In this document: positions 240-17,009 of the stretch, piece by piece
Numbering within the stretch: the stretch's first letter is position 1
Layout of the letters: every line of letters begins with the position of its first letter
The notes under the pieces: generated by a model
Seen by the model: the letters and a program-made list of their open reading frames with translations, nothing else
What the model was told of the DNA's origin: nothing
Databases searched by the model: none
Program-made: the position numbers and the translations under genes
Source: Jatrophihabitans sp.
GTDB taxonomy: Bacteria > Actinomycetota > Actinomycetes > Mycobacteriales > Jatrophihabitantaceae
Length of the DNA: 18,589 nucleotides
Assembly (NCBI RefSeq): GCF_025963285.1
Contig: NZ_JAOPUX010000209.1
Strand: one strand, 5' to 3'

Positions 240-1430
240 TCAGCTGTCGGCGACGAGCTTGGCGATCCGGCTGATTCCCTCGGCGAGGTCGGCGTCGCCG
301 AGGGCGTAGGAGAGGCGGGCGTAGCCCGGCGTGCCGAAGGCCTCACCCGGAACCACGGCCACCTCGACCTCGTCGAGGATGATCGCGGCGAGCTCGGCAG
401 ACGTGGTGGCGACCTTGCCCCGCAGCGACTTGCCGAGCAGCCCCTTCACCGAGGGGTAGACGTAGAAGGCGCCCAGCGGCTCGGGGCAGATGATGCCGGG
501 GATGTCGCGCAGCATCGAGACGGCCAGCTGTCGGCGCCGGTCGAAGGCGCTGCGCATCTCCGCGACGGCCGAGAGATCGCCGGAGACTGCGGCCAGCGCC
601 GCGACCTGGGCGACGTTGTTGACGTTGCTCGTGGCGTGCGACTGCAGGTTCGAGGCCGCTTTGATGACGTCGGTGGGGCCGATCATCCAGCCCACTCGCC
701 AGCCGGTCATGGCGTAGGTCTTGGCGACGCCGTTGAGCACGACGACCTTCTCGCCGGCACTGAGCGCGATCGAGTGGTTCACCGCGCCGCCGTAGACCAG
801 GTGTTCGTTGATCTCGTCGGTGACCGTCCAGAGGTCGTGCGAGGCGGCCCAGGCGCCGATCGCGTCGACCTCACCGGCGGGGTAGACGGCGCCGGTGGGG
901 TTCGAGGGGGAGACGAAGAGCAGCACCTTGGTGCGCTCGGTGCGGGCCGCCTCGAGCTGGTCGACGGTGGCCAGGTACCCCGTGGTCTCGTCGGTGACGA
1001 CGTAGACCGGCACGCCGCCGGCGAGCTTGATCGCCTCGGGGTAGGTGGTCCAATACGGCGCGATCACCAGCACCTCGTCGCCCGGGTCGAGCAGCGCGGC
1101 AAAGGTGTTGTAGACGGCCTGCTTGCCACCGTTGGTGACGAGCACCTGCGCGGCATCGACCTCGTAGGAGGTGTCGCGGAGCGTCTTGGCCGCGATCGCG
1201 GACTTCAGCTCGGGCAGGCCGCCCACCGGCGTGTAACGGTGGTTCTTCGGGTCGCGCGCCGCGGCGAGGGCGGCCTCGACGATGTAGTCCGGCGTCGCGA
1301 AGTCAGGCTCCCCGGCGCCGAAGCCGATGACCGGGCGCCCGGCGGCCTTGAGGGCCTTGGCCTTGGCGTCTACGGCCAGGGTGGCGGATTCAGCGATGGC
1401 GGCGATGCGGTCGGATACGCGGCTTCCCAT
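240..1430 (-). CDS. Class I/II PLP-dependent aminotransferase (aspartate/aromatic aminotransferase family)
   Basis: Track ORF 240..1622(-), trimmed to the internal ATG at 1430, which has GGGAGA about 10 nt upstream. The protein [47 protein letters not shown]... carries the PLP-lysine motif region [18 protein letters not shown] typical of AspC-type enzymes. The 64 aa of Pro/Arg/Gly-rich sequence upstream of that ATG look non-coding. Confidence 0.85.
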
Positions 1431-1471
1431 GTCGGCAATTCTCCCAGATCCGCCGGAGTGCTTTTGACCCC

Positions 1472-1548
1472 CGGGTCTGCCGCCGTCCCCGGGGTCTGCC
1501 GCCGTCCGTCGGGTCTGCCGCCGTCCCTCGGGTCCCTGCCGCTGTCCG
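1472..1548. repeat. Noncoding tandem repeat, about 19 bp x4 (GGGTCTGCCGCCGTCC core)
   Basis: Identical 16-nt cores at 1473-1488, 1492-1507 and 1511-1526, plus a degenerate fourth copy at 1530-1547. They lie in the divergent intergenic region between the aminotransferase start and the flotillin locus. Confidence 0.85.
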
Positions 1549-1555
1549 AGCGGTC

Positions 1556-1825
1556 GTGATCTGTCAGACAGATCCCAGCCGACCGGATCCGAAGGGTCTA
1601 ACGTCGCCAACCGTGGCGACATACACCGGCCACAGCCCCGTTGGGGAGTTAGGCCGGATCACGGTTCCGATCCCGCTCGCGGGACCAGGCGAGGTGCTCG
1701 TACCCGTTCGCGGGGGCACCGAGGCGTTTGCCGCCTGGGCCAGCCAGCCCATCGCCAAGCACTCGATCGTTCTGGTGCTCACCGAACTGTCGGGCCGCAG
1801 CGTGCTGGTGACGCCCTACCCCTGA
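1556..1825 (+). CDS. Short NfeD-like OB-fold protein without an N-terminal membrane segment
   Basis: The 89-aa ORF has a C-terminal [43 protein letters not shown]. This matches the NfeD C-terminal OB-fold pattern (GE.W.A....I..G..V.V..v.G..L.V.P), and NfeD is the usual operon partner of SPFH/flotillin. Start (GTG 1556) is uncertain and there is no obvious SD. Confidence 0.4.
1558..1575. promoter_or_regulatory. Perfect 18-bp palindrome GATCTGTCAGACAGATC (candidate operator)
   Basis: gatctgtc/gacagatc inverted repeat with no spacer, overlapping the GTG of the NfeD-like ORF. It sits in a divergent promoter region. Confidence 0.3.
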
Positions 1826-1920
1826 GCCGCCACACCCTGGGCCACTGCGCCTGAACCCTGCCGCGGGTCGTCGCGGCATCACCATCGCCGCTGTGCGCGG
1901 CAGGATCGAGCACCACCGTC

Positions 1921-3099
1921 ATGTTGTTCTGGCATGTCCCCGCCCCGAACGAGGCCCTTCTGGTCTCCGGGTCGCGGTCGCGCGAAGACGACGACCTGCA
2001 GTTCCGCATCGTCACCGGACACGGCTGCTTCGTGCTGCCGGTGAAGCAACGAGCCCGCACGCTCTCCCTGGCCCTGCGCGAGTCTGAGATCGTCGAGGAC
2101 TGCGTGACGATCCAGGGCGTCCGCCTCACCATCCAGGCCGTCGCCGCGTTCAAGGTCGGCGACGATCCGACCTCCATCGCCAACGCCGCACGCCGCTTCC
2201 TCACCGAGCAGGACCGTCTCGAAGAGCTCGTGGGACGGATCTTCGCCGGCCACCTGCGTTCGATCGTGGGCGCGCTGACCGTCGAGCAGCTCATCAGGGA
2301 GCGTGACCTCGTGGCGCAGGAGGTCAAGGAGGCCAGCCACTCCGAGATGGAGAAGCTCGGCATCGTCGTCGACGCGCTGCAGATCCAGGAGATCGTCGAC
2401 AAGTCCGGCTACATCGACCACCTCGCCGCGCCGCACGCAGCCGCAGTTGCGAGCCAGGCCCGTATCGCCGCCGCGCAGGCCGACCGCGAGGCGGTGGAGA
2501 AGGAACAGGAGGCTGCCGCGCTCAAGGCCGCCTACGAACGCGAGACTGCGATCAAGGTGGCGGGCTTCGCGGCCGAGACCGAGCAGGCCCGCGCCAGCGC
2601 CGCCCAGGCCGGGCCGCTCGCCGAGGCGCGTGCGACGCAGGAGGTGATCGAGCAGCAGACCGCCCTGGCTCGCAGGCAGGCCGAACTCGCCGACCAGGAG
2701 CTCGAGGCCACGGTGCGCAGGCCCGCTGATGCCGAGGCCTACCGGCTGCGCACCCTCGCCGACGCGAAGCGTGACCAGGTGAAGGCCGAGGCAGAGGCGG
2801 GCGCCTACGCGCTGCTCGAGCATGCGCGGTCCCAGGCAGAGGCCAACGAACTGCGCGCGGCGTCGCTGCGCGGCGGCAACCAGGAGCTGATTGCGGCGAA
2901 TCAGCTGATCGACGTGCTGCCGGCGCTGGTCGAGGCGGCGGCGAAGGGGCTGGCAGGGTCGAGTCTCACGGTCCTCAACGGGACGTCGGGGCTCAACGAG
3001 ATGCTCACCGGCCTGGTAGGCCAGGGCTTGACGATCTTCGAGGCGCTGAAGGCGGCGACGGCACATCCTGCCGACGTTCCGAAGCAACTGAGCGCCTGA
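1921..3099 (+). CDS. Flotillin-like SPFH/band-7 domain protein (FloT/YuaG-like), apparently lacking the N-terminal membrane hairpin
   Basis: 392 aa. It has an SPFH core (VPAPNEALLVSGS...IQGVRLTIQAVAAFKVGDDP...LRSIVGALTVEQLIRERD...LGIVVDALQIQEIVDKSGYIDHLA) followed by a long Ala/Glu/Gln-rich coiled-coil flotillin tail. The frame is closed by TGA at 1852-1854 and there is no alternative start between that and ATG 1921, so no TM segment is encoded. The SD is weak. Confidence 0.85.
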   Translation: MLFWHVPAPNEALLVSGSRSREDDDLQFRIVTGHGCFVLPVKQRARTLSLALRESEIVEDCVTIQGVRLTIQAVAAFKVGDDPTSIANAARRFLTEQDRLEELVGRIFAGHLRSIVGALTVEQLIRERDLVAQEVKEASHSEMEKLGIVVDALQIQEIVDKSGYIDHLAAPHAAAVASQARIAAAQADREAVEKEQEAAALKAAYERETAIKVAGFAAETEQARASAAQAGPLAEARATQEVIEQQTALARRQAELADQELEATVRRPADAEAYRLRTLADAKRDQVKAEAEAGAYALLEHARSQAEANELRAASLRGGNQELIAANQLIDVLPALVEAAAKGLAGSSLTVLNGTSGLNEMLTGLVGQGLTIFEALKAATAHPADVPKQLSA

Positions 3100-3137
3100 C
3101 GCCGTGGTGGCGGCCGGGCGAGCGCGACGGGGTCTTT

Positions 3138-3166
3138 TTGGATCTGGGGTGACTCGCCCGTAGACT
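3138..3166 (+). promoter_or_regulatory. Candidate sigma-70-type promoter for the tRNA-Trp/secE/nusG unit
   Basis: TTGGAT (3138-3143), a 17-nt spacer, then TAGACT (3161-3166), about 60 nt upstream of the tRNA. An imperfect inverted repeat gcgcaagcatgc/gcatgtgcgc lies at 3192-3225 between the promoter and the tRNA. Confidence 0.3.
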
Positions 3167-3226
3167 CGCCTGTCGGGGTCCCTGTGGCCCTGCGCAAGCA
3201 TGCTCACGCATGTGCGCGTGCGTCCT

Positions 3227-3299
3227 AGGGGCGTGGCTCAATTGGTAGAGCACCGGTCTCCAAAACCGGCGGTTGCAGGTTCAAGTCCTGTCGCCCCTG
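3227..3299 (+). tRNA. tRNA-Trp (anticodon CCA)
   Basis: 73-nt cloverleaf. Acceptor AGGGGCG/CGCCCCT, D-arm GCTC-AATTGGTA-GAGC, anticodon arm CCGGT-CTCCAAA-ACCGG with CCA centred, T-arm GCAGG-TTCAAGT-CCTGT, discriminator G, no encoded CCA. It sits in the conserved position directly upstream of secE. Confidence 0.85.
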
Positions 3300-3369
3300 C
3301 GGTTCCAAGCAGTACCCGGCAAGACCAGAACGACGAATGCACATCAGGATCCACTCGAAGGAGAGCTCC

Positions 3370-3603
3370 GTGACCGCGACACGCACCGAGCCCGCAGCGT
3401 CCCGCCCCTCCGGCGGTCGTGGCGGCAAGCCTGCGCGTTTCGTGCGCGAGAGCATCTCCGAGCTGCGCAAGGTGCTCTGGCCGTCGCGCAACGAGCTCGT
3501 CACGTACTCGATCGTCGTGATCGTGTTCGTGGTGATCATGGTGTCGCTCGTCGCCGGGCTCGACATCGGTTTCGCCAAGCTGGTGCTCGCCGTCTTTGGC
3601 TGA
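3370..3603 (+). CDS. secE: Preprotein translocase subunit SecE
   Basis: C-terminal TM helix VTYSIVVIVFVVIMVSLVAGLDIGFAKLVLAVFG preceded by ISELRKVLWPSRNEL, in the conserved position before nusG. Start is assigned to GTG 3370, which has GAAGGAGAG at 3356-3364, rather than the track's ATG 3337. Confidence 0.8.
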   Translation: MTATRTEPAASRPSGGRGGKPARFVRESISELRKVLWPSRNELVTYSIVVIVFVVIMVSLVAGLDIGFAKLVLAVFG

Positions 3604-3667
3604 GCAGGGCTGAGCGTCCACGCGCCACGCGTGCCGAGTTCGAGTTCACGAGCAGGAAAGAGAGATT

Positions 3668-4636
3668 GTGTCCGAGTACGACGACGTCACCACCGAGAGC
3701 GTGGACGGCGACGACAAGACCGAGCTGAACGACCCCTTCGCCTCGGCACGCGCCGAGGCGCAGGCTCCGGCTGCCGACACCTCCTTCGCGGCTCAGTCCG
3801 CCGACGAGGACGGTGACGAGCCGGTCGACGCGATCAGCGAGTCCGAGGAGTCCGTCGAGGACGGCCCAACCGACTTCGCCGCGGCCGCTCGTCTGCTCGG
3901 TGCCGACGAGGACGAGCAGATCGGTGACGAGCCAGCCACGGTCGCCGATCTCGGCCCGGCCGAGGACGCCGTCGAGGAGACCGCGGTCGAGGCTGAGCCC
4001 GTTGCCGAGGACGAGGAGAGCGACGAGGACCCGCTCGAGACGCTGCGCCGCGAGCTGCGCACGCAGTTCGGCGACTGGTACGTCGTGCACTCCTACGCCG
4101 GCTACGAGAACAAGGTCAAGACCAACCTCGAGAGCCGCATCCAGTCCCTCGACATGGAGGACTACATCTTCCAGGTCGAGGTCCCGACCGAAGAGGTCGT
4201 GGAGATCAAGAACGGCAAGCGCCAGCAGGTCCAGCGCAAGGTCTTCCCGGGCTACATCCTGGTTCGCATGGAGCTCACCGACGACTCGTGGGGCGCGGTG
4301 CGTAACACCCCAGGCGTCACCGGCTTTGTCGGCGCCACCTCGCGCCCGTCGCCGCTGACCCTCGACGAGGTGCTCCGCATCCTTGCCCCAGCGGCTCAGA
4401 AGGCCGTGGCTGTCGCGAACGGCAAGGCCGGTGCTGCCGCTGCCGACAAGGCTGCCGCCCCGCTCGTCGACTACAACGTCGGCGAGTCGGTCACGGTCAT
4501 GGACGGCCCCTTCGCCACCCTGCCCGCCACGATCAGCGAGATCGACGCCCTGCACCAGAAGCTGCACGTCCTCGTCTCGATCTTCGGTCGCGAGACGCCG
4601 GTCGAGCTGACGTTCAGCCAGGTCGCGAAGATCTAG
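3668..4636 (+). CDS. nusG: Transcription termination/antitermination factor NusG with an actinobacterial acidic N-terminal extension
   Basis: NGN domain ([23 protein letters not shown]...) and KOW region ([30 protein letters not shown]...[23 protein letters not shown]). About 130 aa of D/E/A-rich N-terminal sequence precede these. GTG start at 3668 with AGGAAAGAGAGA upstream. Confidence 0.9.
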
Positions 4637-4694: not shown

Positions 4695-5126
4695 ATGCCT
4701 CCCAAGAAGAAGCTTGCAGCGATCATCAAGCTGCAGATCCAGGCCGGCGCTGCCAACCCGGCGCCGCCGGTCGGCCCTGCCCTGGGTCAGCACGGCGTCA
4801 ACATCATGGAGTTCTGCAAGGCGTACAACGCGGCCACCGAGTCGCAGCGCGGGCAGATCGTCCCGGTCGAGATCTCGGTCTACGAGGATCGCTCGTTCAC
4901 CTTCATCACCAAGACGCCGCCGGCTGCCCGCCTGCTGCTGAAGGCTGCAGGTGTCGAGAAGGGCTCTGGCGAGCCGCACACCAAGAAGGTCGCCAAGGTC
5001 ACGATGGCTCAGGTGCGCGAGATTGCCGAGTCGAAGATGGAAGACCTCAACGCCAACGACATCGACCAGGCCGCGAAGATCATCGCCGGCACCGCCCGGA
5101 GCATGGGCATCACGGTCGAGGGCTGA
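4695..5126 (+). CDS. rplK: 50S ribosomal protein L11
   Basis: [45 protein letters not shown]... is the canonical L11 sequence. A purine-rich SD (agaagagaagaa) lies upstream. Confidence 0.95.
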
Positions 5127-5262: not shown

Positions 5263-5979
5263 ATGAAGCGCAGCAAGGCATACCGCAAGGCAGCGGAGCT
5301 CATCGAGCCCGACAAGATCTACAGCCCGATCGAGGCCGTCAAGATCGCCAAGCAGGCCTCCCCGACCAAGTTCGACGGCACGGTCGAGGTTGCCCTGGTT
5401 CTCGGCGTCGACCCTCGTAAGGCCGACCAGATGGTGCGTGGCACGGTCAGCCTGCCGCACGGCACCGGCAAGACCGCCCGCGTCATCGTCTTCGCCACCG
5501 GCGACCAGGCCGAGGCCGCTCGCGCTGCGGGTGCGGACAAGGTCGGCTCCGACGACCTCATCCAGGAGATCACCGACGGCTTCCTCGACTTCGACGCCGC
5601 GATCGCGACGCCGGACCAGATGGCGAAGGTCGGCCGCATCGCCCGCGTGCTCGGCCCGCGCGGCCTGATGCCGAACCCGAAGACGGGAACGGTCACCCCC
5701 GATGTCGCCAAGGCAGTCACCGACATCAAGGGCGGCAAGATCAGCTTCCGGGTCGACAAGCAGTCCAACCTGCACCTGGTGATCGGCAAGGCGTCCTTCA
5801 CGCCCGAGCAGCTGGTGGAGAACTACGCCGCCGCACTCGACGAGGTGCTCCGCTCGAAGCCGTCCTCCTCCAAGGGCCGCTACGTCAAGAAGGTCGTGTT
5901 CGCCACGACGATGGGCCCGGGCATTCCGGTCGACCCGAACCGCACCCGCAACATGCTCGAGGAGACGCAGGGCGCCTGA
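5263..5979 (+). CDS. rplA: 50S ribosomal protein L1
   Basis: [30 protein letters not shown]...[34 protein letters not shown]... is canonical L1. GGAGA lies 8 nt upstream of the ATG. Confidence 0.95.
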
Positions 5980-6002: not shown

Positions 6003-6056
6003 GAACGGCCCGGCGGCCTCCCTCCCAGGGACCTGCCGGGCCGTTCGGCGTTTCTC
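6003..6056. terminator. Bidirectional intrinsic terminator between rplA (+) and the convergent 255-aa gene (-)
   Basis: Perfect 12-bp stem GAACGGCCCGGC (6003-6014) / GCCGGGCCGTTC (6035-6046) with a 20-nt loop, followed by GGCGTTTCTC. Confidence 0.55.
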
Positions 6057-6822
6057 AGCCGAGCCCGCTACTGCGGTGCGGCTCGGCCGAGCTCAGGCCG
6101 TGCGCGCCGAAGACCTCGGCGATGGCGCGCAGCGGCTCACGGGGGCGGGGTTCGAGGGCCAGCGCCACGAGGTGGCTGCGGTGCTCACCGAAGGTCATCC
6201 CGTTGCCCGGGTCCTCGGCGAGGGCCACACCGGGTGCCAGCGGCAGGCAGAGCGGCGGGGTGTCGGCGCGCATGTAGCCGGACAGTGCTGCGCTGATGTC
6301 GTGATGCAGCCCGGCGTCGTCGGGCAGGTAGATCACCGCACTGCCGCTGTGCCGCAGCCGTGACGGGAGGGTCGGCATGGCCAGCAGCCACGGCTGGTCG
6401 AGCCCGAGCAGTGCTGCGGTGGCGACGTGCACGAACTCGGGCAGTGCCGCCATCTCTGGCGAGAGCAGCAGGCGGACGCTCCGCGAGCGGCTGCGCGACG
6501 GTGACCACTGGCTGCCCCAGGTGCGCCACCAGCGATCACGGCCGAGCACGTCGCGCCGGTCGATCACCTGCACCTCGTCATCGTCGACGACGCGACGCGT
6601 GCTGCCGGCGTGGGCCTGACGGTAGAGCCCGACGAGCGGCAGGCGGAGCAGGGCACGCGGTGTCTCGACGACCGGTGGGGTGAACCACGAGTGGTACAGC
6701 CGCCCTGCCAGCGTGCTCGGGCCGTTGCCTGCGGCGTGGGCGTCGGCGGCCATGATCGCCCCCAGCAGTTGCCGACGTGCCCAGGCGGGCCAGTCCGTCT
6801 GCTCGATGGTGCGGTGCTGCAT
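6055..6822 (-). CDS. Hypothetical protein (255 aa), divergently transcribed from the S8/ECF/CHAT cluster
   Basis: ATG at 6822 with GAGAGGGA SD 6 nt upstream; stop 6055-6057. MQHRTIEQTDWPAWARRQLLGAIMAADAHA... matches no family I recognise. A strong RBS plus the terminator after the stop support it being real. Confidence 0.55.
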   Translation of the reverse strand: MQHRTIEQTDWPAWARRQLLGAIMAADAHAAGNGPSTLAGRLYHSWFTPPVVETPRALLRLPLVGLYRQAHAGSTRRVVDDDEVQVIDRRDVLGRDRWWRTWGSQWSPSRSRSRSVRLLLSPEMAALPEFVHVATAALLGLDQPWLLAMPTLPSRLRHSGSAVIYLPDDAGLHHDISAALSGYMRADTPPLCLPLAPGVALAEDPGNGMTFGEHRSHLVALALEPRPREPLRAIAEVFGAHGLSSAEPHRSSGLG

Positions 6823-7019
6823 GCCGGTCCCTCTCGTCGCTGCGGGTTACGAGGGGAAGGAGACCGGCCAGGGCCAGAAAATACCTGCGGCTACCGCTCG
6901 GTATCACGAACGCTTCTGTCTGCTCCTGACATGGGACAGAATCAGTGCGCGCTCTCCGCTGGCTGCGGGTATCCGACGGCCCTAGGCTCAGCGCCGGACG
7001 CCCCCAACCCGGAGTGATC

Positions 7020-8606
7020 ATGAGCGAGTTCCCCACCACGTCTGACGGCCGCAAGATCGTGACGCGTGTGCCGAAGACCGCCTCCTTCCCGGTCCTTGAC
7101 GTGCCGGCCGAGACCCTCCACCGCTACCGCGCGAAGGTCCTCGACCCGACCACGGCGGTGCAGCTGCCGGGTGAGCCGCGGCCGGCCTCGACCGTGTACA
7201 TCACCGACCAGCTCATCGTCAGTGGCCTCGCCACCCTGGATGCGCACGCCACCCTCGCCGAGGCGGCCGGCCGGTTCGGCCTCTCGGTCGTCACTCGCCT
7301 GAACGCCCCCGCCGGGCACCGGATCTTCCGCGCCGAGGCCGTGGCTCGCAACGCTGGGATCGCGCCGGAGTACCTGCCGCAGCGGGTACGCCTGGCGGTG
7401 ACCGCACCGACCGCCCCTGCGCCGGACGCCTGGGCGGTACTGCAGACGTACCGGAGCCTGCTCAAGCCCGACGATCCGGCCCGTCAGCACGTGCAGCTCG
7501 ACCACCTGATGAGCGCGTACCCGTACACGACGGGTCACCCGTACACGACCGGTCATCCCTACACGACAGGTCACCCGTACACGACCGGGCACGACTACGG
7601 GGACCCCGGTTACGGCGGCCGCGTGCCCGTGGCCTTCGTCAGCGCGCCGCCCCTGCGTCGTGAGCCCAGCCCGCTCGTGCGCCGCCCCAAGATCGTCGTA
7701 CTCGACACCGGCATCGGCCAGCACAGCTGGCTCACCCCCCAGCAGGGCTGCGTCGCCGACGGGTACGCGCTCCAGGTGCCGGTCAGCAACCCCGAGGTCA
7801 CCGGCGTGACGGTCGACCCGTACGAGGGTGAGCTGGACTCCGACGCCGGCCACGGCACGTTCATCGCGGGCATCCTGCGGCAGGGCGCTCCCGATGCCGA
7901 TGTCGAGATGATCTCGGTGATGGGAGGCGACGGCTTCGTGCCGGAGAGCGACCTCCTCGACGCGGTGATCATGCTTGCGCTGCGGCAGCAGCACTGCGTG
8001 CAGCAGGGCCAGGCAGAGAGCTTCATCGACGTCTTGGTGCTGTCTCTCGGGTACTACAACGAGAACCCGGCCGACCTGACGTACTCGTCCGAGCTGGGCG
8101 CGGCGCTGCGGGTATTGGGTAGCAACGGCACGATCGTGGTCGCGGCCGCCGGCAACGATGCCACCGACCGGCCGATGTACCCGGCGGCGTTCGGCCCATG
8201 GCAGGGCAGTCCGGGCAATCCCGCCTGCGCACCCGTCGTCAGCGTCGGAGCCCTCAACCCGAACCGGGCGACGATCGCTCTCTTCAGCAACGCGGGGTCG
8301 TGGGTGGCGACCCATGACATCGGGGTGTCGGTGGTCAGCACCTTCCCGGACACGTTCGACGGTTCGGCCCAGCCTGACGCCGCGGTCTACGTGCCGGGCG
8401 ACGGCCTGCGCACCTCCCTGGACGTCGATGACTTCCGCGGCGGGTTCGGCACCTGGAGTGGCACCTCGTTCTCGGCCCCGGTGCTGGCGGCGAAGCTCGC
8501 GGCCCGGCTCACTGCCGCCGCCGATCTCGCCGCGGTCGACCAGCCGACTGCGGTGGCCCGCGCGTGGGCAGCCGTCACGGCGCAAGTCCCCGGGCTGCAC
8601 CCGTGA
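7020..8606 (+). CDS. Subtilisin-like serine peptidase (S8 family), no signal peptide, with an N-terminal ~200-aa domain of unknown function and an HPYTTG x4 linker
   Basis: Catalytic motifs appear in S8 order: Asp (KIVVLDTGIG), His (DAGHGTFIAGIL), oxyanion Asn (VVAAAGNDATD), Ser (WSGTSFSAPVLAAKLAA). Start is set at ATG 7020 (GGAG 6-7 nt upstream) instead of track 6945. The N-terminus MSEFPTTSDGRKIVTRVPKT... has no hydrophobic signal, so the protein is predicted cytoplasmic. Confidence 0.85.
   Translation: MSEFPTTSDGRKIVTRVPKTASFPVLDVPAETLHRYRAKVLDPTTAVQLPGEPRPASTVYITDQLIVSGLATLDAHATLAEAAGRFGLSVVTRLNAPAGHRIFRAEAVARNAGIAPEYLPQRVRLAVTAPTAPAPDAWAVLQTYRSLLKPDDPARQHVQLDHLMSAYPYTTGHPYTTGHPYTTGHPYTTGHDYGDPGYGGRVPVAFVSAPPLRREPSPLVRRPKIVVLDTGIGQHSWLTPQQGCVADGYALQVPVSNPEVTGVTVDPYEGELDSDAGHGTFIAGILRQGAPDADVEMISVMGGDGFVPESDLLDAVIMLALRQQHCVQQGQAESFIDVLVLSLGYYNENPADLTYSSELGAALRVLGSNGTIVVAAAGNDATDRPMYPAAFGPWQGSPGNPACAPVVSVGALNPNRATIALFSNAGSWVATHDIGVSVVSTFPDTFDGSAQPDAAVYVPGDGLRTSLDVDDFRGGFGTWSGTSFSAPVLAAKLAARLTAAADLAAVDQPTAVARAWAAVTAQVPGLHP
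7521..7592 (+). repeat. In-frame 18-bp tandem repeat x4 encoding (H)PYTTG(H) hexapeptides
   Basis: ccgtacacgacgggtcac / ccgtacacgaccggtcat / ccctacacgacaggtcac / ccgtacacgaccgggcac. It sits in the linker between the N-terminal domain and the S8 catalytic domain (YPYTTGHPYTTGHPYTTGHPYTTGHDYGDPGYGG). Confidence 0.9.
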
Positions 8607-9193
8607 TCGCTGCCGAACCGGTCGGCGAGACGCTCGCCTCGCGCGCCGCGTCGCTGTTCCGTGCGTATCGGGACGGCGACGAGTCGCGGATGGGAGAACT
8701 CGTCGGCCTGCTCACGCCGATCCTGTGGCATACGGCGCGCGGCCAGCGCCTGGACCGTGAGTCGGCCGAGGACGTCGTGCAGTCGGCGTGGCTGGCGCTG
8801 GTACGAAGCTCAGGGTCCATCTCCGATCCGCAGGCGGTGCTCGGCTGGCTGATCACCACCGTGCGCCGGGAGTCGTGGCGAGTGGCCAAGCGCGACGGGC
8901 GAGCCGACCCGACCGAGTTCGAGGACGACGACGTGGTGGCGCCGGTGTCGGACCTGCCCGAGGAGCGAGTGCTGGCCGACGACAGTGCGGGTCGCCTCTG
9001 GCAGCACCTGGCCCGGCTGCCCGAGCGCTGCCAGGCACTGCTGCGGGTGATCGCCTTCGCTGACCGTCCGGACTATGCCGCGGTGGCCAAGGCGCTCGGG
9101 ATGCCGGTGGGGAGCATCGGCCCCACGCGCGGGCGCTGCCTCGCCAAACTCCGTGCCCACCTGACCGAAGACCCGACCTGGGAGACCTCATGA
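8603..9193 (+). CDS. ECF-type (sigma-70 family, regions 2 and 4) RNA polymerase sigma factor
   Basis: Region 2-like LVGLLTPILWHTARGQRLDRESAEDVVQSAWLALVRS and region 4.2-like LPERCQALLRVIAFADRPDYAAVAKALGMPVGSIGPTRGRCLAKLRAHL. The proposed GTG at 8603 overlaps the S8 stop (GTGA, 8603-8606) and gives a typical ~196-aa ECF size; the track's ATG 8564 would overlap the protease by 43 nt. Confidence 0.8.
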   Translation: MIAAEPVGETLASRAASLFRAYRDGDESRMGELVGLLTPILWHTARGQRLDRESAEDVVQSAWLALVRSSGSISDPQAVLGWLITTVRRESWRVAKRDGRADPTEFEDDDVVAPVSDLPEERVLADDSAGRLWQHLARLPERCQALLRVIAFADRPDYAAVAKALGMPVGSIGPTRGRCLAKLRAHLTEDPTWETS

Positions 9194-9690
9194 CGAACCC
9201 ACGACCCGGAGAGGACGAGTTGGCCCTGGGTGCCATCGACGCGATCGATCTAGCCGTGCTCGACCGCATCGAGGCGCTGTACCGGCAGCTCGATCCCGTA
9301 CCGGCTGCCCTGGTCGAGCGGGTCCAGTTCGGCATCACCCTGGAGGCGCTGCACTCCGAGATCGCCGAGTTGCAGCGATCGGCAGACCTTGCCGGCGTCC
9401 GCTCGGACGGGGGCGCCGACGCCCAGACGATCACCTTCACCAGTGCCCGCCTCACGACGATGGTGACGATCAGCCCGATCTCGGCCGAGCTGGCGCGGAT
9501 CGACGGCTGGGTGGTGCCCGGCGCCGGCGTGACCGTCGAGTTGAGGACCGTCGGTGGCGTGAGCACGACGACGACGGACCCCGACGGGCGCTTCGTCTTC
9601 GAAGCGGCCGAGCGCGGCATCGCGCAGTTCATCCTCCGACAGGCATCGGATGCCTCGGCGACCGTCGTCACGCCGTCCGTCGAACTCTGA
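9190..9690 (+). CDS. Soluble 166-aa protein: helical N-terminus plus C-terminal CarboxypepD_reg-like (transthyretin-like) beta-sandwich; candidate anti-sigma or adaptor
   Basis: ATG 9190 overlaps the sigma stop (ATGA) and has GGGAGA upstream. The C-terminus VVPGAGVTVELRTVGGVSTTTTDPDGRFVFEAAERGIAQFIL matches the carboxypeptidase-regulatory-domain motif (G..V.l......t.TD.dGrF.f). There is no TM segment and no zinc-finger motif. Confidence 0.6.
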   Translation: MTNPRPGEDELALGAIDAIDLAVLDRIEALYRQLDPVPAALVERVQFGITLEALHSEIAELQRSADLAGVRSDGGADAQTITFTSARLTTMVTISPISAELARIDGWVVPGAGVTVELRTVGGVSTTTTDPDGRFVFEAAERGIAQFILRQASDASATVVTPSVEL

Positions 9691-9701
9691 TCCAGAGTGA
9701 C

Positions 9702-12230
9702 GTGAGCGGAGGGCTCGAGGACGCCAGCGCACTCCGTGCCCGCGCCGTTCACGAACACGACAGGGGCAGACCCGTTCGTGCGCGCCGGCTGCTCCTCCGT
9801 GCCCGCGAACGGGTCGGCGCGCCACCCTACGTCGACAACGGCTACGCCGATCTCGCGGCGCGGATCGCGATCTCCCTCGCACGCGTGGACGCCGAGCTCT
9901 ACGGGGTCGAGGTAGGGCTGACGGTCGCCAAGCAGGCCGCGGCCGAGGCCTGGGCCACGGGCACGCCCAGCCTGGTGGTGCCGGCGGTGGGTCAGGTCGG
10001 GTTGATCGCCCTCCGGGCCGGAAGGCTCGGTCTCGCTGCCGAGTCGCTCGAGTCGGTCGAGCACATGGTGGACGACGGGTACGGCGATGTCGACGATCGC
10101 TACTCGGTCCTGCTCAACCTGGGGACGACGCGGATGCTGCTGGGGGACTTGACCCGTGGGCGATCCTCCCTCGTCAAGGCGGCAGAGCTGGCCCGCTCCG
10201 GACGAGCCTTCGGGGAGTTCATGGCGAGGCACAACCTCGGTTACCTCGACTTCCTTCGGGGCGACATTCCGTCGGCCTTGGAGCAGATGGAGCGGGCGCT
10301 CGCCACCAACGTGGACGCCTCGATCGGCGTCGCGCTGCTGGACCGGGCACGGGTGCTCTTCGAGGCCGGCCTGGTGCGGGGCGCCGACACCGCGCTCGCC
10401 GAGGCCGCGAAGATCTTCGCGGCCGACCGGCTGGCCCAGGATCTCGGCGAGGCGGAGCTGGAGCGCGCGCGGTGTGCCCTGATCTCGGCTGACATCGGGG
10501 CGGCCCGCCGGTTCGCCGGCCGCGCCCGCACGCGGTTCGCACGCCGGGGCAGCGACCGGTGGCGGCAGGCCGCCGAGCTGGTGCTGCTGCAGGCCGACCT
10601 CGCCGCCGGCCGCCCGGGTCGTCGCCTGATCGGTCCTGCGCGGCGACTGCGAGACGAGCTCGCCGCGGAGGGGCTCGGGGTGCTCGCGCGGACGGCGACG
10701 TTGATCGCGGCTGAGGCGGCGCTGGCCGCCGGAGACAGCGCTGACGCCGCGATCGAGCTGCTGCAGCTCGGGCGTGAGACACGGCGCGACCCGATCACCT
10801 ATCGGCTGCACGCCGCCTACGTCCGGGCCCGCCTAGACGCTGCACAGGGACGTCGCGGCCCGGCGGCGGCCCGTCTGCGCCGGGGTCTCTCCGAGCTTGC
10901 CGCGTACCAGTCCGGCTTCGGCAGCCTCGACCTCAGCACGGCGGCCGCGGTGCACGGGAGCCGCCTGGTGGCCCTCGACGTCGAGCTGGCCCTCGTCACC
11001 GGCCGGGCTGCCTCCGTCTTCGCCGCCGCCGAGCGGGGCAGGGCGGTGACGAGTCGGCTGGCACCTGTCCGGCCGCCGGACGACCAGGTCACGGCCGAGC
11101 TGCTCGCCGAACTCCGGCAGACCGTCGAGTCGCTGCGCGGCGTCGAACTCGACCCCGGACAGGCCGCACCGCTCGCCCGTCGGCGCAGTGAGCTGGAGCG
11201 CCGGATCGCCGAACGTGCGTGGTCTCGCCAGGGTGGCCGGTCGGTCGACGAGGCGGTTCCCCTCTCCGTGCTCCGGCCCGCACTGGGTTCCGCCGACTCG
11301 ACGCTGGTCTCGTACGTGGTGTCGGGAACGGAGTTGCATGCCGTGCTGGTGGGGGAGAGCCGGGTGCGCCACGTGCGGCTCGGTCCGTTCGCCGCGGTGG
11401 GGGAGCAGGTGCGCCGGGTGCGCGCCGACCTCGACATCCTTGCCCAGCCTCGACTTCCGGCGGCGATCGGCTCGGCGGTCCGCGCATCCTTCGGGCGTTC
11501 GATCCAGGCACTGGACGCCGCGCTCATCGCACCGCTGCGGCTGCAGGGTCGGCTCGTTCTCGTCACCACCGGCCTGCTCGGTGCCGTTCCCTGGGGCGCG
11601 TTGCCCTCGCTGCGGGGCGTCCCGCTGGTCGTCGCGCCGTCGGCCACGGCGTGGGTCACCGCCACCAGGTTGCCGCGACGATCCGGCGGCCGCCGGATGG
11701 TCGCTGTCGCCGGACCCGGCCTTGCCCGTTCGGACGACGAGGCTGCTGACGCCGCTGCGGCGTGGGGTACCGGCAAGGTGATCGCGGGAGCCACCGGAGC
11801 AGCGGTCTCCCAGGCGATGGCCACGGCACGCGTGGTGCACATCGCCGCGCACGGCGTGCACCAGAACGAGAACCCGCTCTTCTCCTCGATCCGCCTCGCC
11901 GACGGCCCGCTCTTCGCCCACGAACTGGACCAGACGGCCGGCACGCCCGAGCACGTCGTCCTCTCCGCCTGCGAACTCGGGCTGGCGACGGTCCGCCCCG
12001 GTGACGAGGCGCTGGGGCTCACGAGCGTGCTGCTGCGGCTCGGCACGAAGAGCGTCGTCTCCGGGGTGGCCCGTATCGGTGACGACCTCGCGGCCGACGT
12101 GATGGGCACCTATCACCGCCTGCTGGCCGGCGGCAGGGACAGCGCCGCCGCCCTCGCCGAGGCCGGCGAGGCGGTGGGCCAACCGGTGCCACTCGTCTGC
12201 TTCGGGGCCACCTGGGCGCTGCGCGGCTGA
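9702..12230 (+). CDS. TPR-like helical repeat protein with a C-terminal CHAT (caspase-like cysteine protease) domain
   Basis: 842 aa. The N-terminal ~550 aa is Ala/Leu/Arg-rich and helical-repeat-like. The C-terminus has the CHAT His/Cys dyad context: ARVVHIAAHGVHQNENPLFSSIRLADG...PEHVVLSACELGLA. GTG start at 9702 lies 11 nt after the previous stop. Confidence 0.85.
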   Translation: MSGGLEDASALRARAVHEHDRGRPVRARRLLLRARERVGAPPYVDNGYADLAARIAISLARVDAELYGVEVGLTVAKQAAAEAWATGTPSLVVPAVGQVGLIALRAGRLGLAAESLESVEHMVDDGYGDVDDRYSVLLNLGTTRMLLGDLTRGRSSLVKAAELARSGRAFGEFMARHNLGYLDFLRGDIPSALEQMERALATNVDASIGVALLDRARVLFEAGLVRGADTALAEAAKIFAADRLAQDLGEAELERARCALISADIGAARRFAGRARTRFARRGSDRWRQAAELVLLQADLAAGRPGRRLIGPARRLRDELAAEGLGVLARTATLIAAEAALAAGDSADAAIELLQLGRETRRDPITYRLHAAYVRARLDAAQGRRGPAAARLRRGLSELAAYQSGFGSLDLSTAAAVHGSRLVALDVELALVTGRAASVFAAAERGRAVTSRLAPVRPPDDQVTAELLAELRQTVESLRGVELDPGQAAPLARRRSELERRIAERAWSRQGGRSVDEAVPLSVLRPALGSADSTLVSYVVSGTELHAVLVGESRVRHVRLGPFAAVGEQVRRVRADLDILAQPRLPAAIGSAVRASFGRSIQALDAALIAPLRLQGRLVLVTTGLLGAVPWGALPSLRGVPLVVAPSATAWVTATRLPRRSGGRRMVAVAGPGLARSDDEAADAAAAWGTGKVIAGATGAAVSQAMATARVVHIAAHGVHQNENPLFSSIRLADGPLFAHELDQTAGTPEHVVLSACELGLATVRPGDEALGLTSVLLRLGTKSVVSGVARIGDDLAADVMGTYHRLLAGGRDSAAALAEAGEAVGQPVPLVCFGATWALRG

Positions 12231-14527: not shown

Positions 14528-14565
14528 GACGCCCCGTGCGCCCTGCGCCGGGGCGTTTCTCGTTC
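14528..14565 (+). promoter_or_regulatory. Terminator-like hairpin within the rplJ 5' leader (candidate L10 leader attenuator)
   Basis: Stem GACGCCCCG (14528-14536) / CGGGGCGTT (14549-14557) with a 12-nt loop, followed by a T-rich TTCTCGTT. It lies about 50 nt upstream of the rplJ start inside a ~235-nt untranslated leader. Confidence 0.4.
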
Positions 14566-14610
14566 CTCAGGCAGGCGTCACCAGCCTGAACGAACGAGAG
14601 GAGGTTGCAC

Positions 14611-15261
14611 ATGCCGAACGCCGAAAAGACCGGCGCGGTCGCCGAGCTGTCGGAGCACTTCGCCACGTCCAGCGCGGCCGTCATCACCGAGTACCGCGGT
14701 CTGACCGTCAAGCAGGTCACCGACCTGCGCAAGGCGCTGGGTCGGGACACGACGTACTCCGTCGTCAAGAACACCCTGACCAAGCTGGCTGCGGCCGACG
14801 CCGGTGTCACCATCGACGACGCGCTGCTCACCGGCCCCACGGCCATCGCCTTCGTCAAGGGCGACCCGGTCGAGGCAGCCAAGGGTCTGCGCGACTTCGC
14901 GAAGACCAACCCGCTGCTGGTCATCAAGGGCGGTGTCCTCGACGGTAAGACGCTGTCTGCCGCTGAGGTCAACAAGATCGCCGACCTGGAGTCCCGCGAG
15001 GTCCTGCTGTCGAAGATGGCCGGTGTCCTCAAGGCACTGCCCACCCGCGCAGCCGGTCTCTTCCAGGCTCCGCTGTCGCAGATGGCTCGCCTGGCCAAGG
15101 CACTCGAGGAGAAGAAGCCTGCAGAGGCAGCAGCTCCCGAGGCGCCCGCAGAGGAAACACCCGTCGCCGAGGCCCCCGTGGCCGAGGTCGAGGAGGCAGT
15201 CGAGGCACCCGCCCCCGTCGCCGAGGACAGCACCGAAGCTTCCGCCGAGCCGGCGGAGTAA
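14611..15261 (+). CDS. rplJ: 50S ribosomal protein L10
   Basis: [44 protein letters not shown]... is canonical L10 with an Ala/Glu/Pro-rich C-terminal tail. ATG 14611 has GAGAGGAGG 6 nt upstream and is preferred over track TTG 14605. Confidence 0.95.
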
Positions 15262-15324: not shown

Positions 15325-15711
15325 ATGGCGAAGCTCAGCACCGATGACCTGCTCGACGCGTTCAAGGAGATGACCCTTCTCGAGCTCAGCGAGTTCGTGA
15401 AGCAGTTCGAGGAGACCTTCGACGTCACCGCCGCCGCTGCTGTTGCGGCTCCGGCCGTTGGTGGGGCCGGCCCGGCCGCTCCCGCCGTCGAGGAGGAGAA
15501 GGACGAGTTCGACGTCATCCTCGAGTCGGCCGGCGAGAAGAAGATCCAGGTCATCAAGGAGGTGCGCACGCTCACCAACCTGGGCCTCAAGGAGGCCAAG
15601 GACCTGGTCGACGGCGCCCCGAAGCCGGTTCTCGAGAAGGCCGACAAGGCCGCTGCGGACAAGGCCAAGGAGGTCCTCGAGGCCGCCGGTGCCACCGTCA
15701 CGGTCAAGTAG
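15325..15711 (+). CDS. rplL: 50S ribosomal protein L7/L12
   Basis: [34 protein letters not shown]...[59 protein letters not shown] 15325 has AAAGGAAG upstream and is preferred over track 15316. Confidence 0.95.
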
Positions 15712-15784: not shown

Positions 15785-15917
15785 GTGACGGGCGACTTTG
15801 TGCGTGCTGCCGGTGCGTGACGGCCCACATTGTGCGTGCTGCCGGTGCTGACGGGCGACTTTGTGCGTGCTGCCGGTGCTGACGGTGCGCCGCAGCACCG
15901 AGTGCGCGCACAAAGTG
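15785..15917. repeat. Three tandem ~32-bp direct repeats plus a partial inverted copy (GTGACGGGCGACTTTGTGCGTGCTGCCGGTGC)
   Basis: Copies at 15785-15816, 15817-15848 (variant with cccaca) and 15849-15879. An inverted partial copy cgcagcaccgagtgcgcgcacaaagt lies at ~15889-15917. Together this can form a long imperfect hairpin (ACTTTGTGCG...CGCACAAAGT). Intergenic between rplL and the convergent asparaginase-family gene. Confidence 0.8.
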
Positions 15918-15935: not shown

Positions 15936-17009
15936 CTACGGCGAGAGCAGCTCCGCCAGCCAGGGCGACGGGCGCAGCGACCCCACGGGCACGCCGCCGC
16001 CCAGCACCGGGACCTCGCCCCAGCTCAGCTCCGCCGCCCAGCGGCTCGGCTCCGCCGCTCCCTGGCCCGGCTCCGCCGCGCCATGGCCCGGCTCCGCCGC
16101 TCCCCGACCCGGCTCCGCCGCGCTGTGGCTCGGCTCCGCCGCTCCCTGGCTCGGCTCCGCCGCCCAGCGGGCCAGCACGGCCGCGAGCAGTACCGGTAGC
16201 GCCCGGGCGCCCCCGTCCTCGAACTTCGCGGCGAACGCCCGACCGTCCGGCAGGGCAGCGGCCCAGACGCCCTCCGCGCCGTCCTTGCAGATCAGTCCTG
16301 GGACCGCGGCCATCGCCAGGCTCGCCGCGCGCGTGGTGCCGCCGATCAGCAGGGGATGCCGCCGCATCGCGTTGGCAACCATCGAAGACGGGCCTGAGCC
16401 GGCCGAGGCCAGCCGCGCGAAGGCGGTGGCAAGCCCGGTGAGGGTCACGGCAAAGGCGGGCGCCCCGCAGCCGTCCACCGCGACGGCGGAGACCTCGACG
16501 CCCGTCAGCACCTCGATCCGGTCGCGGATCTGCTGCTGCAGCGGGTGGGCCGGGTCTCGGTAGGACGGCAGCGGCAGCCCAGCGGCCACACAGGTGGCGA
16601 GCATCGCCGCGTGCTTGCCGGAGCAGTTGTGGCAGATCGGGTCGGCCGAGCCGCCGCCGCGAACCCAGTCGATCAGCGCCGTCTGGCTGCCCGGGAGCGC
16701 CGCCGGGCACTGCAGGGCGGACTCGTCCAGGCCCGCCGCGGCGAGGGTGGCCCGTGCACCGTCGACGTGCATCGCCTCGCCGTCATGGCTGGCCATCGAG
16801 AGGGCCAGCGATGCGCCGCGCCCGATGAAGCCGGCATCCAGCATCGCGACCGACTGCAGCGGCTTCAGCGCCGACCGGGGGAAGACCGGATCGTCGGCCG
16901 TGCCTGCCGTGAGCACCCCGGCCGGTTCGAGCAGCACGATGCTGCCCCGATGCACCGACTCGACATATCCGTCGCGGACGACCTCGATCAGCACCGGTGG
17001 GGCAGCCAT
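15936..17009 (-). CDS. Asparaginase_II-family protein (Rhizobium AnsA-type L-asparaginase) with a C-terminal AAEPxxG heptad-repeat tail
   Basis: MAAPPVLIEVVRDGYVESVHRGS...PRSALKPLQ...HNCSGKHAAMLA match the conserved motifs of this family, from memory. ATG at 17009. The C-terminal ~75 aa is low-complexity sequence encoded by a 21-bp tandem repeat. Confidence 0.7.
   Translation of the reverse strand: MAAPPVLIEVVRDGYVESVHRGSIVLLEPAGVLTAGTADDPVFPRSALKPLQSVAMLDAGFIGRGASLALSMASHDGEAMHVDGARATLAAAGLDESALQCPAALPGSQTALIDWVRGGGSADPICHNCSGKHAAMLATCVAAGLPLPSYRDPAHPLQQQIRDRIEVLTGVEVSAVAVDGCGAPAFAVTLTGLATAFARLASAGSGPSSMVANAMRRHPLLIGGTTRAASLAMAAVPGLICKDGAEGVWAAALPDGRAFAAKFEDGGARALPVLLAAVLARWAAEPSQGAAEPSHSAAEPGRGAAEPGHGAAEPGQGAAEPSRWAAELSWGEVPVLGGGVPVGSLRPSPWLAELLSP
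16023..16169 (-). repeat. In-frame 21-bp tandem repeat x7 (core GGCTCCGCCGC) encoding (G)AAEPxx heptads at the asparaginase-family C-terminus
   Basis: Units near 16026, 16044, 16065, 16086, 16107, 16128 and 16149. Copies 2 and 6, and copies 1 and 7, are identical, giving a symmetric array. Confidence 0.85.

Follow-up and report, generated by a model that had tools for sequence, protein, structure and literature searches.

The locus and its genes

The subject of this report is a module of four plus-strand genes in an 18,589-nucleotide stretch of a Jatrophihabitans sp. genome (contig NZ_JAOPUX010000209.1, G+C content 70%), which we refer to as the window. The genes encode a subtilase of peptidase family S8, a sigma factor of the extracytoplasmic function (ECF) type, a protein of 166 amino acids (p166) and a protease with tetratricopeptide repeats (TPR) and a CHAT domain (Table 1). 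They lie between rplA and rplJ, within the conserved secE-nusG-rplKA-rplJL region. As described below, the locus is very probably a functional module of the ECF54 type, and p166 is the best candidate for its missing anti-sigma factor, albeit a non-canonical one; alternatively, p166 could be a substrate of the proteases.

Coding assignments were made from codon-position G+C together with Pfam, NCBIfam and tRNA scans of the window. The G+C content of third codon positions is 0.85-0.90 in the frames of the four genes, which backs these calls, and the junctions between the genes can be read directly. The S8 stop codon overlaps the GTG start of the sigma gene (GTGA, 8603-8606), the sigma stop codon overlaps the ATG of p166 (ATGA, 9190-9193), and 11 nt separate p166 from the CHAT gene, which starts with GTG at 9702. 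A GGAG sequence is located 7 nt upstream of the S8 start codon (ATG, 7020). Between 5900 and 14700, a scan for sigma-70-like promoters and terminators gave none inside the cluster. On the plus strand, a terminator-like hairpin first appears at 14538-14556, just before rplJ, and so read-through from the module into rplJ-rplL is conceivable. The unit exceeds four genes, because it also includes a divergent gene for a HopA1-like protein (6055-6822, minus strand) and two back-to-back promoter-like motifs in the spacer between this gene and S8 (6823-7019).

The initial annotation of this DNA, made from the letters alone, had described four closely packed genes with these same junctions, had read them as S8 subtilase, ECF sigma, small beta-sandwich protein and TPR-CHAT protease, and had reported an Asp/His/Ser triad and a His/Cys dyad as well as proteases without secretion signals and no membrane-spanning anti-sigma factor. 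All of this holds, with the qualification that Pfam places the CarboxypepD_reg match of p166 below threshold. In a hydropathy scan, which was used without a dedicated signal-peptide or membrane-helix predictor, no 19-residue stretch of the four proteins exceeds a Kyte-Doolittle value of 1.51.

Conservation of the linkage

We chose p166 as the anchor for a search of related loci because it is the family-specific component of the module. A species-level scan found p166 relatives in 160 genomes, from which the best 80 loci were taken; the window proteins were compared with these loci by tblastn, and linkage was counted on 57 non-redundant p166-containing loci with adequate flanks. S8 and CHAT both adjoin the sigma-p166 pair in 50 of the 57 loci and neither is present in six. 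In the remaining locus, from a Cellulomonas (L082), CHAT is accompanied by a divergent trypsin-like protease that takes the place of S8.

The module is present in four actinobacterial orders (Jatrophihabitantales, Micrococcales, Propionibacteriales and Streptosporangiales) and in two gene orders, S8-sigma-p166-CHAT and sigma-p166-S8-CHAT. It is fixed at the rplA-rplJ site in dozens of genomes of the Jatrophihabitans clade. Microlunatus, Lapillicoccus and other Propionibacteriales and Micrococcales have it at unrelated chromosomal sites. One genome has it after dnaG, two more (L088 and L089) have MazG-like and radical SAM genes beside it, and it is also present in Nonomuraea gerenzanensis. Thus, the linkage has been retained despite rearrangement, at different sites and across four orders, which excludes chance adjacency and settles the matter of neighbour co-occurrence that the initial annotation had raised. 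Cultured hosts of the module are Jatrophihabitans sp. GAS493, Frankineae bacterium MT45, Microlunatus ginsengisoli JCM 16929 and Nonomuraea gerenzanensis.

The junctions are conserved as well. At the S8-sigma junction, 49 of 55 loci show a 4-nt overlap. Among 84 loci, the overlap of sigma with p166 measures 4 nt in 49 and 1 nt in 32, together 81. Because of this coupling, and because the two genes also occur without any protease, sigma and p166 are the invariant core pair of the module. The initial annotation saw the unit as two proteases flanking sigma and p166; the adjacency is real, but the core is the pair alone. S8 and CHAT also behave as a pair, in that they are gained or lost together.

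The six protease-less variants come mostly from metagenome-assembled genomes of the Propionibacteriaceae type and consist of sigma-p166 with the promoter-like motif upstream. Where open reading frames could be called, the pair has a membrane transporter-like gene on one side and genes of housekeeping appearance on the other. The opposite variant, without sigma, is represented by one locus (L086), in which positions 707-3892 encode S8 coupled by a 1-nt overlap to a p166 homologue and followed by a TPR protein, with GTATCA-N16-CTCTT at 538-564. This contig is just 3.9 kb long, and the sigma factor may be encoded elsewhere. Taken together, these patterns place p166 at the centre of the module: its gene is coupled to that of sigma nearly everywhere, it occurs with sigma without the proteases, and in one locus it occurs with S8 and a TPR-CHAT-type partner without sigma.

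Phage and plasmid searches did not find the module on true plasmids or phages. A 7.5-kb human faecal contig deposited as 'UNVERIFIED: Bacteriophage sp.' (MT838002.1) has S8-sigma-p166-CHAT; it is probably a fragment of actinobacterial DNA that was assigned in error. The record of Nonomuraea gerenzanensis 'plasmid I' in PLSDB (NZ_LT559118.1) is 11.85 Mb and hence chromosome-sized.

The sigma factor and its ECF54 context

With 196 residues and sigma-2 and sigma-4 regions only, the sigma factor belongs to the ECF (group IV) class of sigma-70 factors. It matches Pfam Sigma70_r2 at 7.8e-7 (29.2 bits, cut-off 24) and, over residues 34-186, TIGR02937 (sigma70-ECF) at 2.5e-13 (50.0 bits, cut-off 42.9). 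It is the product of the most conserved gene of the module, at 49-76% identity across the tblastn loci and up to 93% in the closest database relatives, and its best 120 homologue matches are all close Jatrophihabitans-type relatives. None of the neighbours of sigma has an anti-sigma match in Pfam or NCBIfam and no membrane protein is conserved beside it. In line with the initial annotation, no conventional membrane anti-sigma factor is linked to sigma.

The initial annotation did not recognize the gene combination as a named system. However, the combination matches the published context signature of group ECF54 gene for gene: a subtilase, a 'carboxypeptidase', a CHAT protein, a minimal ECF sigma factor and no anti-sigma factor. 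For ECF54, proteolytic control has been proposed from conserved neighbours with carboxypeptidase, subtilase and CHAT domains (PMC8999054, citing Huang et al. 2015 and Casas-Pastor et al. 2021). Casas-Pastor et al. (2021) describe the group as actinobacterial, with a 4Fe-4S protein as neighbour and with no putative anti-sigma factor or clear regulator; their main text mentions neither CHAT nor subtilase. Subtilase, CHAT and CarboxypepD_reg neighbours surround sigma in the window and in the 50 related loci mentioned above, the host is an actinobacterium and no canonical anti-sigma factor adjoins sigma. We assign the locus to ECF54 on three grounds, namely this context signature, its taxonomy and the fact that a canonical anti-sigma factor is lacking, and not by a group-specific model.

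One detail of the published context differs. The window genes include no 4Fe-4S protein, which is a frequent neighbour and not a strict criterion of the group; a Radical_SAM gene is found about 0.8 kb downstream of the module only in L088 and L089. The ECF54 example named in PMC8999054, SFT86700.1 from Geodermatophilus amargosae, is not among the best 120 sigma homologue matches.

Since the gene combination was already catalogued, the window does not represent a new system. What is new, relative to the passages on ECF54 in these sources, is the reassignment of p166 as a sigma partner, the bipartite promoter-like motif, the zymogen character and repeat linker of S8, and the natural variants that lack the proteases or sigma.

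p166, a candidate partner of the sigma factor

A p166 profile retrieves 568 clusters (50% identity) at E<=1e-10 with HMMER. Apart from a few fragments and four longer proteins, nearly all of the best 150 of these 568 clusters are free-standing proteins about 150-185 residues long. The CarboxypepD_reg match of p166 itself (5e-5, residues 105-144) is below the Pfam cut-off, and the structure model predicts an eight- to nine-strand beta-sandwich of the carboxypeptidase-regulatory (transthyretin-like) type over residues 68-165. The protein has no peptidase domain and so it is not an M14 zinc carboxypeptidase. Judged by its sequence, then, p166 is not a carboxypeptidase at all, and proteins annotated as 'carboxypeptidase' in this context should not count as peptidases. 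It has no cysteine and hence no HxxxCxxC zinc motif of class I anti-sigma factors (ASD/ZAS). It matches zero NCBIfam families, so there is also no match to the Csx30 and Csx31 models.

The most conserved part of p166 is not the sandwich but a short stretch that precedes it, residues 35-60, with the invariant motif DPxPxxLxxRxxFxxT...AE (D35-P36-x-P38-x-x-L41-x-x-R44-x-x-F47-x-x-T50 ... A59). Helices are predicted at 8-13, 18-34 and 51-56, with low confidence in the isolated model. AlphaFold does not place the conserved stretch (predicted local distance difference test, pLDDT, below 50 at 35-37 and 47-65). A conserved segment that is poorly placed in isolation would be in keeping with folding upon contact with a partner, although the shallow alignment of 23 sequences could also cause the low values.

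The two proteases

S8 matches Peptidase_S8 (PF00082) at 1.2e-17, and its catalytic residues, in DTG, HGT and GTSxAxP motifs, are kept in 61-63 of 63 orthologues. The model predicts a prodomain-like N-terminal domain at about residues 28-166 (pLDDT 82-97), a disordered linker at 167-208 and then the catalytic domain. The longest Foldseek alignments of this model (470-495 columns) are to unprocessed pro-forms, namely PCSK9, ProN-Tk-SP and pro-Tk-subtilisin; precursors of intracellular subtilisins, such as the Bacillus ISP precursor (2wwt), match over about 315 columns, in the catalytic domain only. From the model, S8 looks like a cytoplasmic zymogen. The longest matches are pro-enzymes with an N-terminal inhibitory prodomain. 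Compared with the Bacillus ISP precursor, pro-Tk-subtilisin and PCSK9, the prodomain-like region of S8 is larger, with about 140 well-folded residues, and is followed by the disordered repeat linker.

The linker of S8 contains an 18-bp tandem repeat (Table 1). Its orthologues have units with a Pro-aromatic core and a period of 6 or 11 residues, in 2-12 copies, between two conserved anchors. The units themselves vary, for example, SPYVNG x7, TPFVNG x10, SPYTSG x12 and 11-residue units x2, and many are Ser/Thr-rich or begin with S/T-P. At least two near-exact repeat copies are present in 111 of the 171 S8 homologues whose linker could be delimited. Even the trypsin-like substitute for S8 in Cellulomonas bears (E)PFT repeats. 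The repeat linker might be a ligand of the TPR region, a set of cleavage sites or a set of modification sites. We know of no other subtilase with such a linker.

The CHAT protein matches CHAT (PF12770) at 3e-29, as well as TPR_12, and has the His-Cys dyad of the caspase-like peptidases of clan CD. A TPR-like helical region occupies about residues 1-600 and the CHAT domain residues 600-823. All 54 of 54 orthologues keep H717-G718 and C757, and the dyad is in register with the HG and AC motifs of the Csx29 structures 8d9f and 7x8a. Among solved structures, Csx29 also comes closest in sequence to the CHAT domain (E=0.003); against the NCBIfam model of Csx29 (NF041237), the protein scores 20.8 bits, for a cut-off of 300.

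The promoter-like motif and the divergent genes

The operon and its divergent neighbour are both preceded by a motif of the type GTATCA-N16-CTCYT. A search of both strands of the 18.6-kb window with GTATYN-N15-17-YTCYY finds two matches, compared to 0.19 expected by chance, and these two are back to back in the 197-nt divergent spacer. Of 78 related loci, 61 have GTATCA-N16(17)-CTCYT before their first module gene, in every class of locus, at 60-205 nt and typically 110-180 nt upstream. The two boxes are invariant and the spacer and flanks are unconserved, which is the pattern of a protein-binding site and not of residual similarity. The motif recurs in remote loci, also as divergent pairs, and it is present in the sigma-less locus too. 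When both strands are counted, 2.7 Mb of loci contain 134 matches: 91 precede an S8, sigma or HopA1-like gene, and the remainder are mostly minus-strand sites at the same divergent position. About 55 loci have such a minus-strand site, at 150-230 nt upstream of the module. We infer that the motif is an autoregulated target promoter of this sigma factor.

A second element may provide basal expression. The -10-like hexamer TAGGCT at 6983-6988 is possibly a basal housekeeping (sigma-A) promoter, and TA[CGA][GAT]CT is present downstream of the motif in 41 of 78 loci, 31-100 nt before the start codon and in about three quarters of them within 31-50 nt.

The divergent gene differs by lineage. A HopA1-like gene is in this position in 30 related loci, with the motif upstream in 26, and is likely a member of the regulon. 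Other loci have a gene for an APH-like kinase (L046, L073 and L088), an AraC-type regulator (L049 and L061) or, in the Cellulomonas locus, a trypsin-like protein (Trypsin_2). The HopA1-like family includes the LanY phospho-Ser/Thr lyases, and in class V lanthipeptides LanY is paired with the kinase LanK to dehydrate Ser and Thr (PMC9486802). Only one of the HopA1-like and APH-like genes, which resemble such a LanY/LanK-type pair, was detected per locus. That the two are one family was considered and rejected, as they have no BLASTP similarity.

A proposed mechanism

By analogy with other sigma factors under proteolytic control, one could envision the following chain of events. p166 would be made in a fixed ratio with sigma by virtue of the stop/start overlap, and its N-terminal helical segment would bind sigma and hold it inactive, i.e., p166 would be a soluble anti-sigma factor. 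A cytoplasmic cue, sensed by the approximately 600-residue TPR region of the CHAT protein, would render the protease pair active, possibly as a cascade, with cleavage at the repeat linker ridding the S8 zymogen of its prodomain. The proteases would then destroy p166, and the freed sigma would transcribe its own operon and the divergent gene, creating a positive feedback. This chain is the likeliest of the explanations considered here, but taken as a whole it is a tentative proposal, a little on the doubtful side of even. The initial annotation had likewise read the cluster as a proteolysis-gated cytoplasmic switch. The cytoplasmic module is indeed conserved and the literature proposes the same type of control (PMC8999054); the gating itself is the part that we infer.

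Several observations support such a mechanism. First, the overlap of sigma and p166 is nearly universal and the pair persists in the six protease-less loci. Second, the sigma-less locus, with its overlapping S8 and p166 genes, its TPR protein and the same motif, ties p166 to the proteases. Third, the proteases occur as a pair with conserved triad and dyad, and in Cellulomonas S8 has been exchanged for another protease, the trypsin-like one. The zymogen architecture of S8, the lack of a catalytic domain in p166 and the motif before the operon and its divergent gene also speak for it.

There are also precedents. In the type III-E craspase, the TPR-CHAT protease Csx29 is encoded with an ECF-type sigma factor (CASP-sigma) and a small inhibitor, Csx30; cleavage of the inhibitor relieves the inhibition, and the CHAT dyads of the two systems align (PMC10028731). 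However, our module has no Cas7-11, CRISPR RNA or CRISPR array, and so the activating signal cannot be a target RNA. It also has a second, serine protease, and p166 matches no Csx30 or Csx31 model. The type III-B cascades, SAVED-CHAT to PCaspase with PCc-sigma and PCi, and CalpL-CalpT-CalpS, likewise have two proteases, a sigma factor and a small regulator; an anti-sigma-like protein is cut, and one protease activates the other (bioRxiv 10.1101/2023.06.23.546230), an order of events that we can only suggest for the module. Unlike them, the module has no SAVED or other cyclic-oligonucleotide sensor, its second protease is a subtilase and not a caspase or Lon, and its context is a housekeeping one. 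Finally, in the DdvA-DdvS system of Myxococcus xanthus, an ECF sigma factor is under a TPR-CHAT-containing system and CHAT proteolysis is proposed to be the first release step (PMC11506125). There, the anti-sigma factor is one transmembrane protein, DdvA, whose N-terminal domain binds zinc and whose periplasmic TPR-CHAT region has an incomplete active site; RseP completes the release. In contrast, the TPR-CHAT protein of the module is a separate cytoplasmic protein, and p166, the candidate anti-sigma factor, is separate and soluble and has no Cys/His zinc motif.

Several points weigh against this model. To our knowledge, GTATCA is not a typical -35 element of ECF promoters, and the motif could instead be an operator for another regulator. 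None of the 23 p166 homologues matches an anti-sigma family at E<=1. A comparison of the p166 profile with the PDB gives only two marginal matches, to a carbohydrate-binding sandwich at E of about 1, and nothing in the N-terminal part. The six loci without adjacent proteases imply that release by S8 and CHAT is not universal, unless the proteases are encoded elsewhere. S8 and CHAT are inside the operon that follows the motif and so could be outputs of the switch rather than inputs. Last, the published ECF54 proposals have no anti-sigma factor and let the proteases act on sigma itself (PMC8999054).

Alternative explanations

The likeliest alternative is that the proteases are outputs. In this case, sigma and p166 would be a complete switch that operates by another route, and S8 and CHAT would be effectors of the regulon that remodel or destroy cytoplasmic proteins in stress, development or cell death, and not the trigger of sigma release. 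The location of the motif before the whole operon would mean that the proteases are co-induced with sigma, and in six fully flanked loci sigma-p166 is alone behind the same motif. The divergent genes behind the motif are a varied set of enzymes and regulators (HopA1-like, APH-like, AraC-type and trypsin-like), and Casas-Pastor et al. (2021) caution that conserved neighbours of ECF sigma factors may be targets and not regulators. However, S8 precedes sigma with a 4-nt overlap in most loci, a closer coupling than a simple target usually shows, and the sigma-less locus connects p166 with the proteases. We consider proteases that are outputs only to be rather unlikely; moreover, this explanation and release of sigma from p166 are not exclusive, because feedback could join both.

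One can also take the proposed release mechanism further and view the module as a counterpart of the sigma switches of craspase and SAVED-CHAT that stands by itself, independent of CRISPR. TPR-CHAT would dock on or cut the repeat linker of S8, S8 would remove p166, and sigma would drive a GTATCA-N16-CTCYT regulon that includes the HopA1-like and APH-like enzymes, which might modify the Ser/Thr-rich repeats. As part of the same scenario, p166 would be a new structural class of soluble anti-sigma factor, consisting of a short helical segment that binds sigma and a transthyretin-like sandwich. This joint scenario is unlikely.

The model in the ECF54 literature has no anti-sigma factor. Here, the proteases would degrade sigma and keep the system off, and p166 would be an adaptor that presents or shields sigma. 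It was proposed by analogy with the ClpXP control of AntA (PMC8999054, section 3.3), and it agrees with the absence of a putative anti-sigma factor in ECF54 (Casas-Pastor et al. 2021). However, the model counts the 'carboxypeptidase' as a peptidase, whereas p166 has only a non-catalytic, regulatory-like sandwich. In addition, a sigma factor that is co-transcribed with its own destroyers from a seemingly autoregulated promoter makes no obvious switch, sigma is the most conserved component of the module, and the literature searched contains no experiment on any ECF54 member. Degradation of sigma by the proteases is quite improbable.

Finally, the initial annotation had suggested a defence or conflict system, with TPR-CHAT and S8 as abortive-infection effectors or sensors and sigma as the transcriptional output, as in craspase and CalpL; protease-sigma modules are known from CRISPR and CBASS loci, the CHAT domain has the distant kinship to Csx29 described above and the subtilase has a weak PADLOC match (PDLC03014, 3.7e-6), but PADLOC-DB 2.0 gives nothing for sigma, p166, CHAT, the HopA1-like protein or the downstream protein p700, the window has no cas genes, no CRISPR array in a direct-repeat scan and no cyclase or SAVED genes, the Csx29 score is far below its cut-off, and the module resides at a fixed site between ribosomal protein genes in dozens of genomes and not in variable islands, plasmids or phages, all of which makes this role very improbable.

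If p166 is indeed the anti-sigma factor and S8 and CHAT release sigma from it, the module would be a wholly cytoplasmic, proteolysis-gated ECF switch that is unattached to CRISPR or CBASS, and it would form a bridge from ordinary signal transduction in bacteria to the protease-sigma modules of immune systems. ECF54 is among the ECF groups listed without a known regulator. For this group, the present analysis supplies a likely partner protein, the active-site residues S483 and C757, a promoter candidate (6901-6927) and the cultured hosts named above.

Other features of the window

Table 1. Features of the window, with the module and its control region listed before the neighbouring genes
Feature	Position	Strand	Remark
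S8 subtilase, 528 aa	7020-8606	+	
S8 D229	7704-7706	+	VLDTGI
S8 H278	7851-7853	+	HGTFIAG
S8 N379 (oxyanion-hole Asn)	8154-8156	+	AAAGND
S8 S483	8466-8468	+	GTSFSAP
S8 linker, 18-bp tandem repeat x3.7	7519-7585	+	encodes (H/Y)PYTTG x4
ECF sigma, 196 aa	8603-9193	+	
p166, 166 aa	9190-9690	+	
TPR-CHAT protease, 842 aa	9702-12230	+	
CHAT H717	11850-11852	+	HG motif
CHAT C757	11970-11972	+	AC motif
GTATCA-N16-CTCCT, candidate autoregulatory ECF promoter	6901-6927	+	93 nt upstream of S8 start
GTATTT-N16-CTCCT	6858-6884	-	faces HopA1-like gene
TAGGCT, TANNNT-type -10-like hexamer	6983-6988	+	31 nt upstream of S8 start
HopA1-like gene, 255 aa	6055-6822	-	divergent from module; Pfam HopA1 PF17914, 7.5e-11
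p700, secreted or anchored, ~690-700 aa	12271-14373	+	accessory; likelier start GTG 12307 after GAAGGA
Aminotransferase gene	240-1622	-	
SPFH protein gene	1921-3099	+	
tRNA-Trp	3227-3300	+	
secE	3337-3603	+	
nusG	3668-4636	+	
rplK	4695-5126	+	
rplA	5263-5979	+	
rplJ	14605-15261	+	
rplL	~15325-15711	+	
Asparaginase II	15936-17009	-	

The gene that follows CHAT encodes p700, which has an N-terminal hydrophobic segment (Kyte-Doolittle 2.33) and no match in Pfam, NCBIfam or PADLOC. It was found in only 16 related loci, either downstream of CHAT or between rplA and the HopA1-like gene, and is outside the conserved core. The tRNA-Trp is the only match of an Rfam scan of the window. NusG, at 322 residues, has a long N-terminal extension, such that its NusG N-terminal domain begins at residue 136.

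Tandem repeats are also present elsewhere in the window. The 5' part of the aminotransferase gene has about four copies of a 19-nt repeat (1468-1548, minus strand), and the asparaginase II gene has about seven copies of a 21-nt repeat that encode AAEPxxG heptapeptides near the C-terminal end (16023-16185, minus strand). A 31-nt repeat (TGACGGGCGACTTTGTGCGTGCTGCCGGTGC) is present in 3.2 copies at 15786-15885, in the spacer that separates rplL from the asparaginase II gene, towards which it is convergently oriented.

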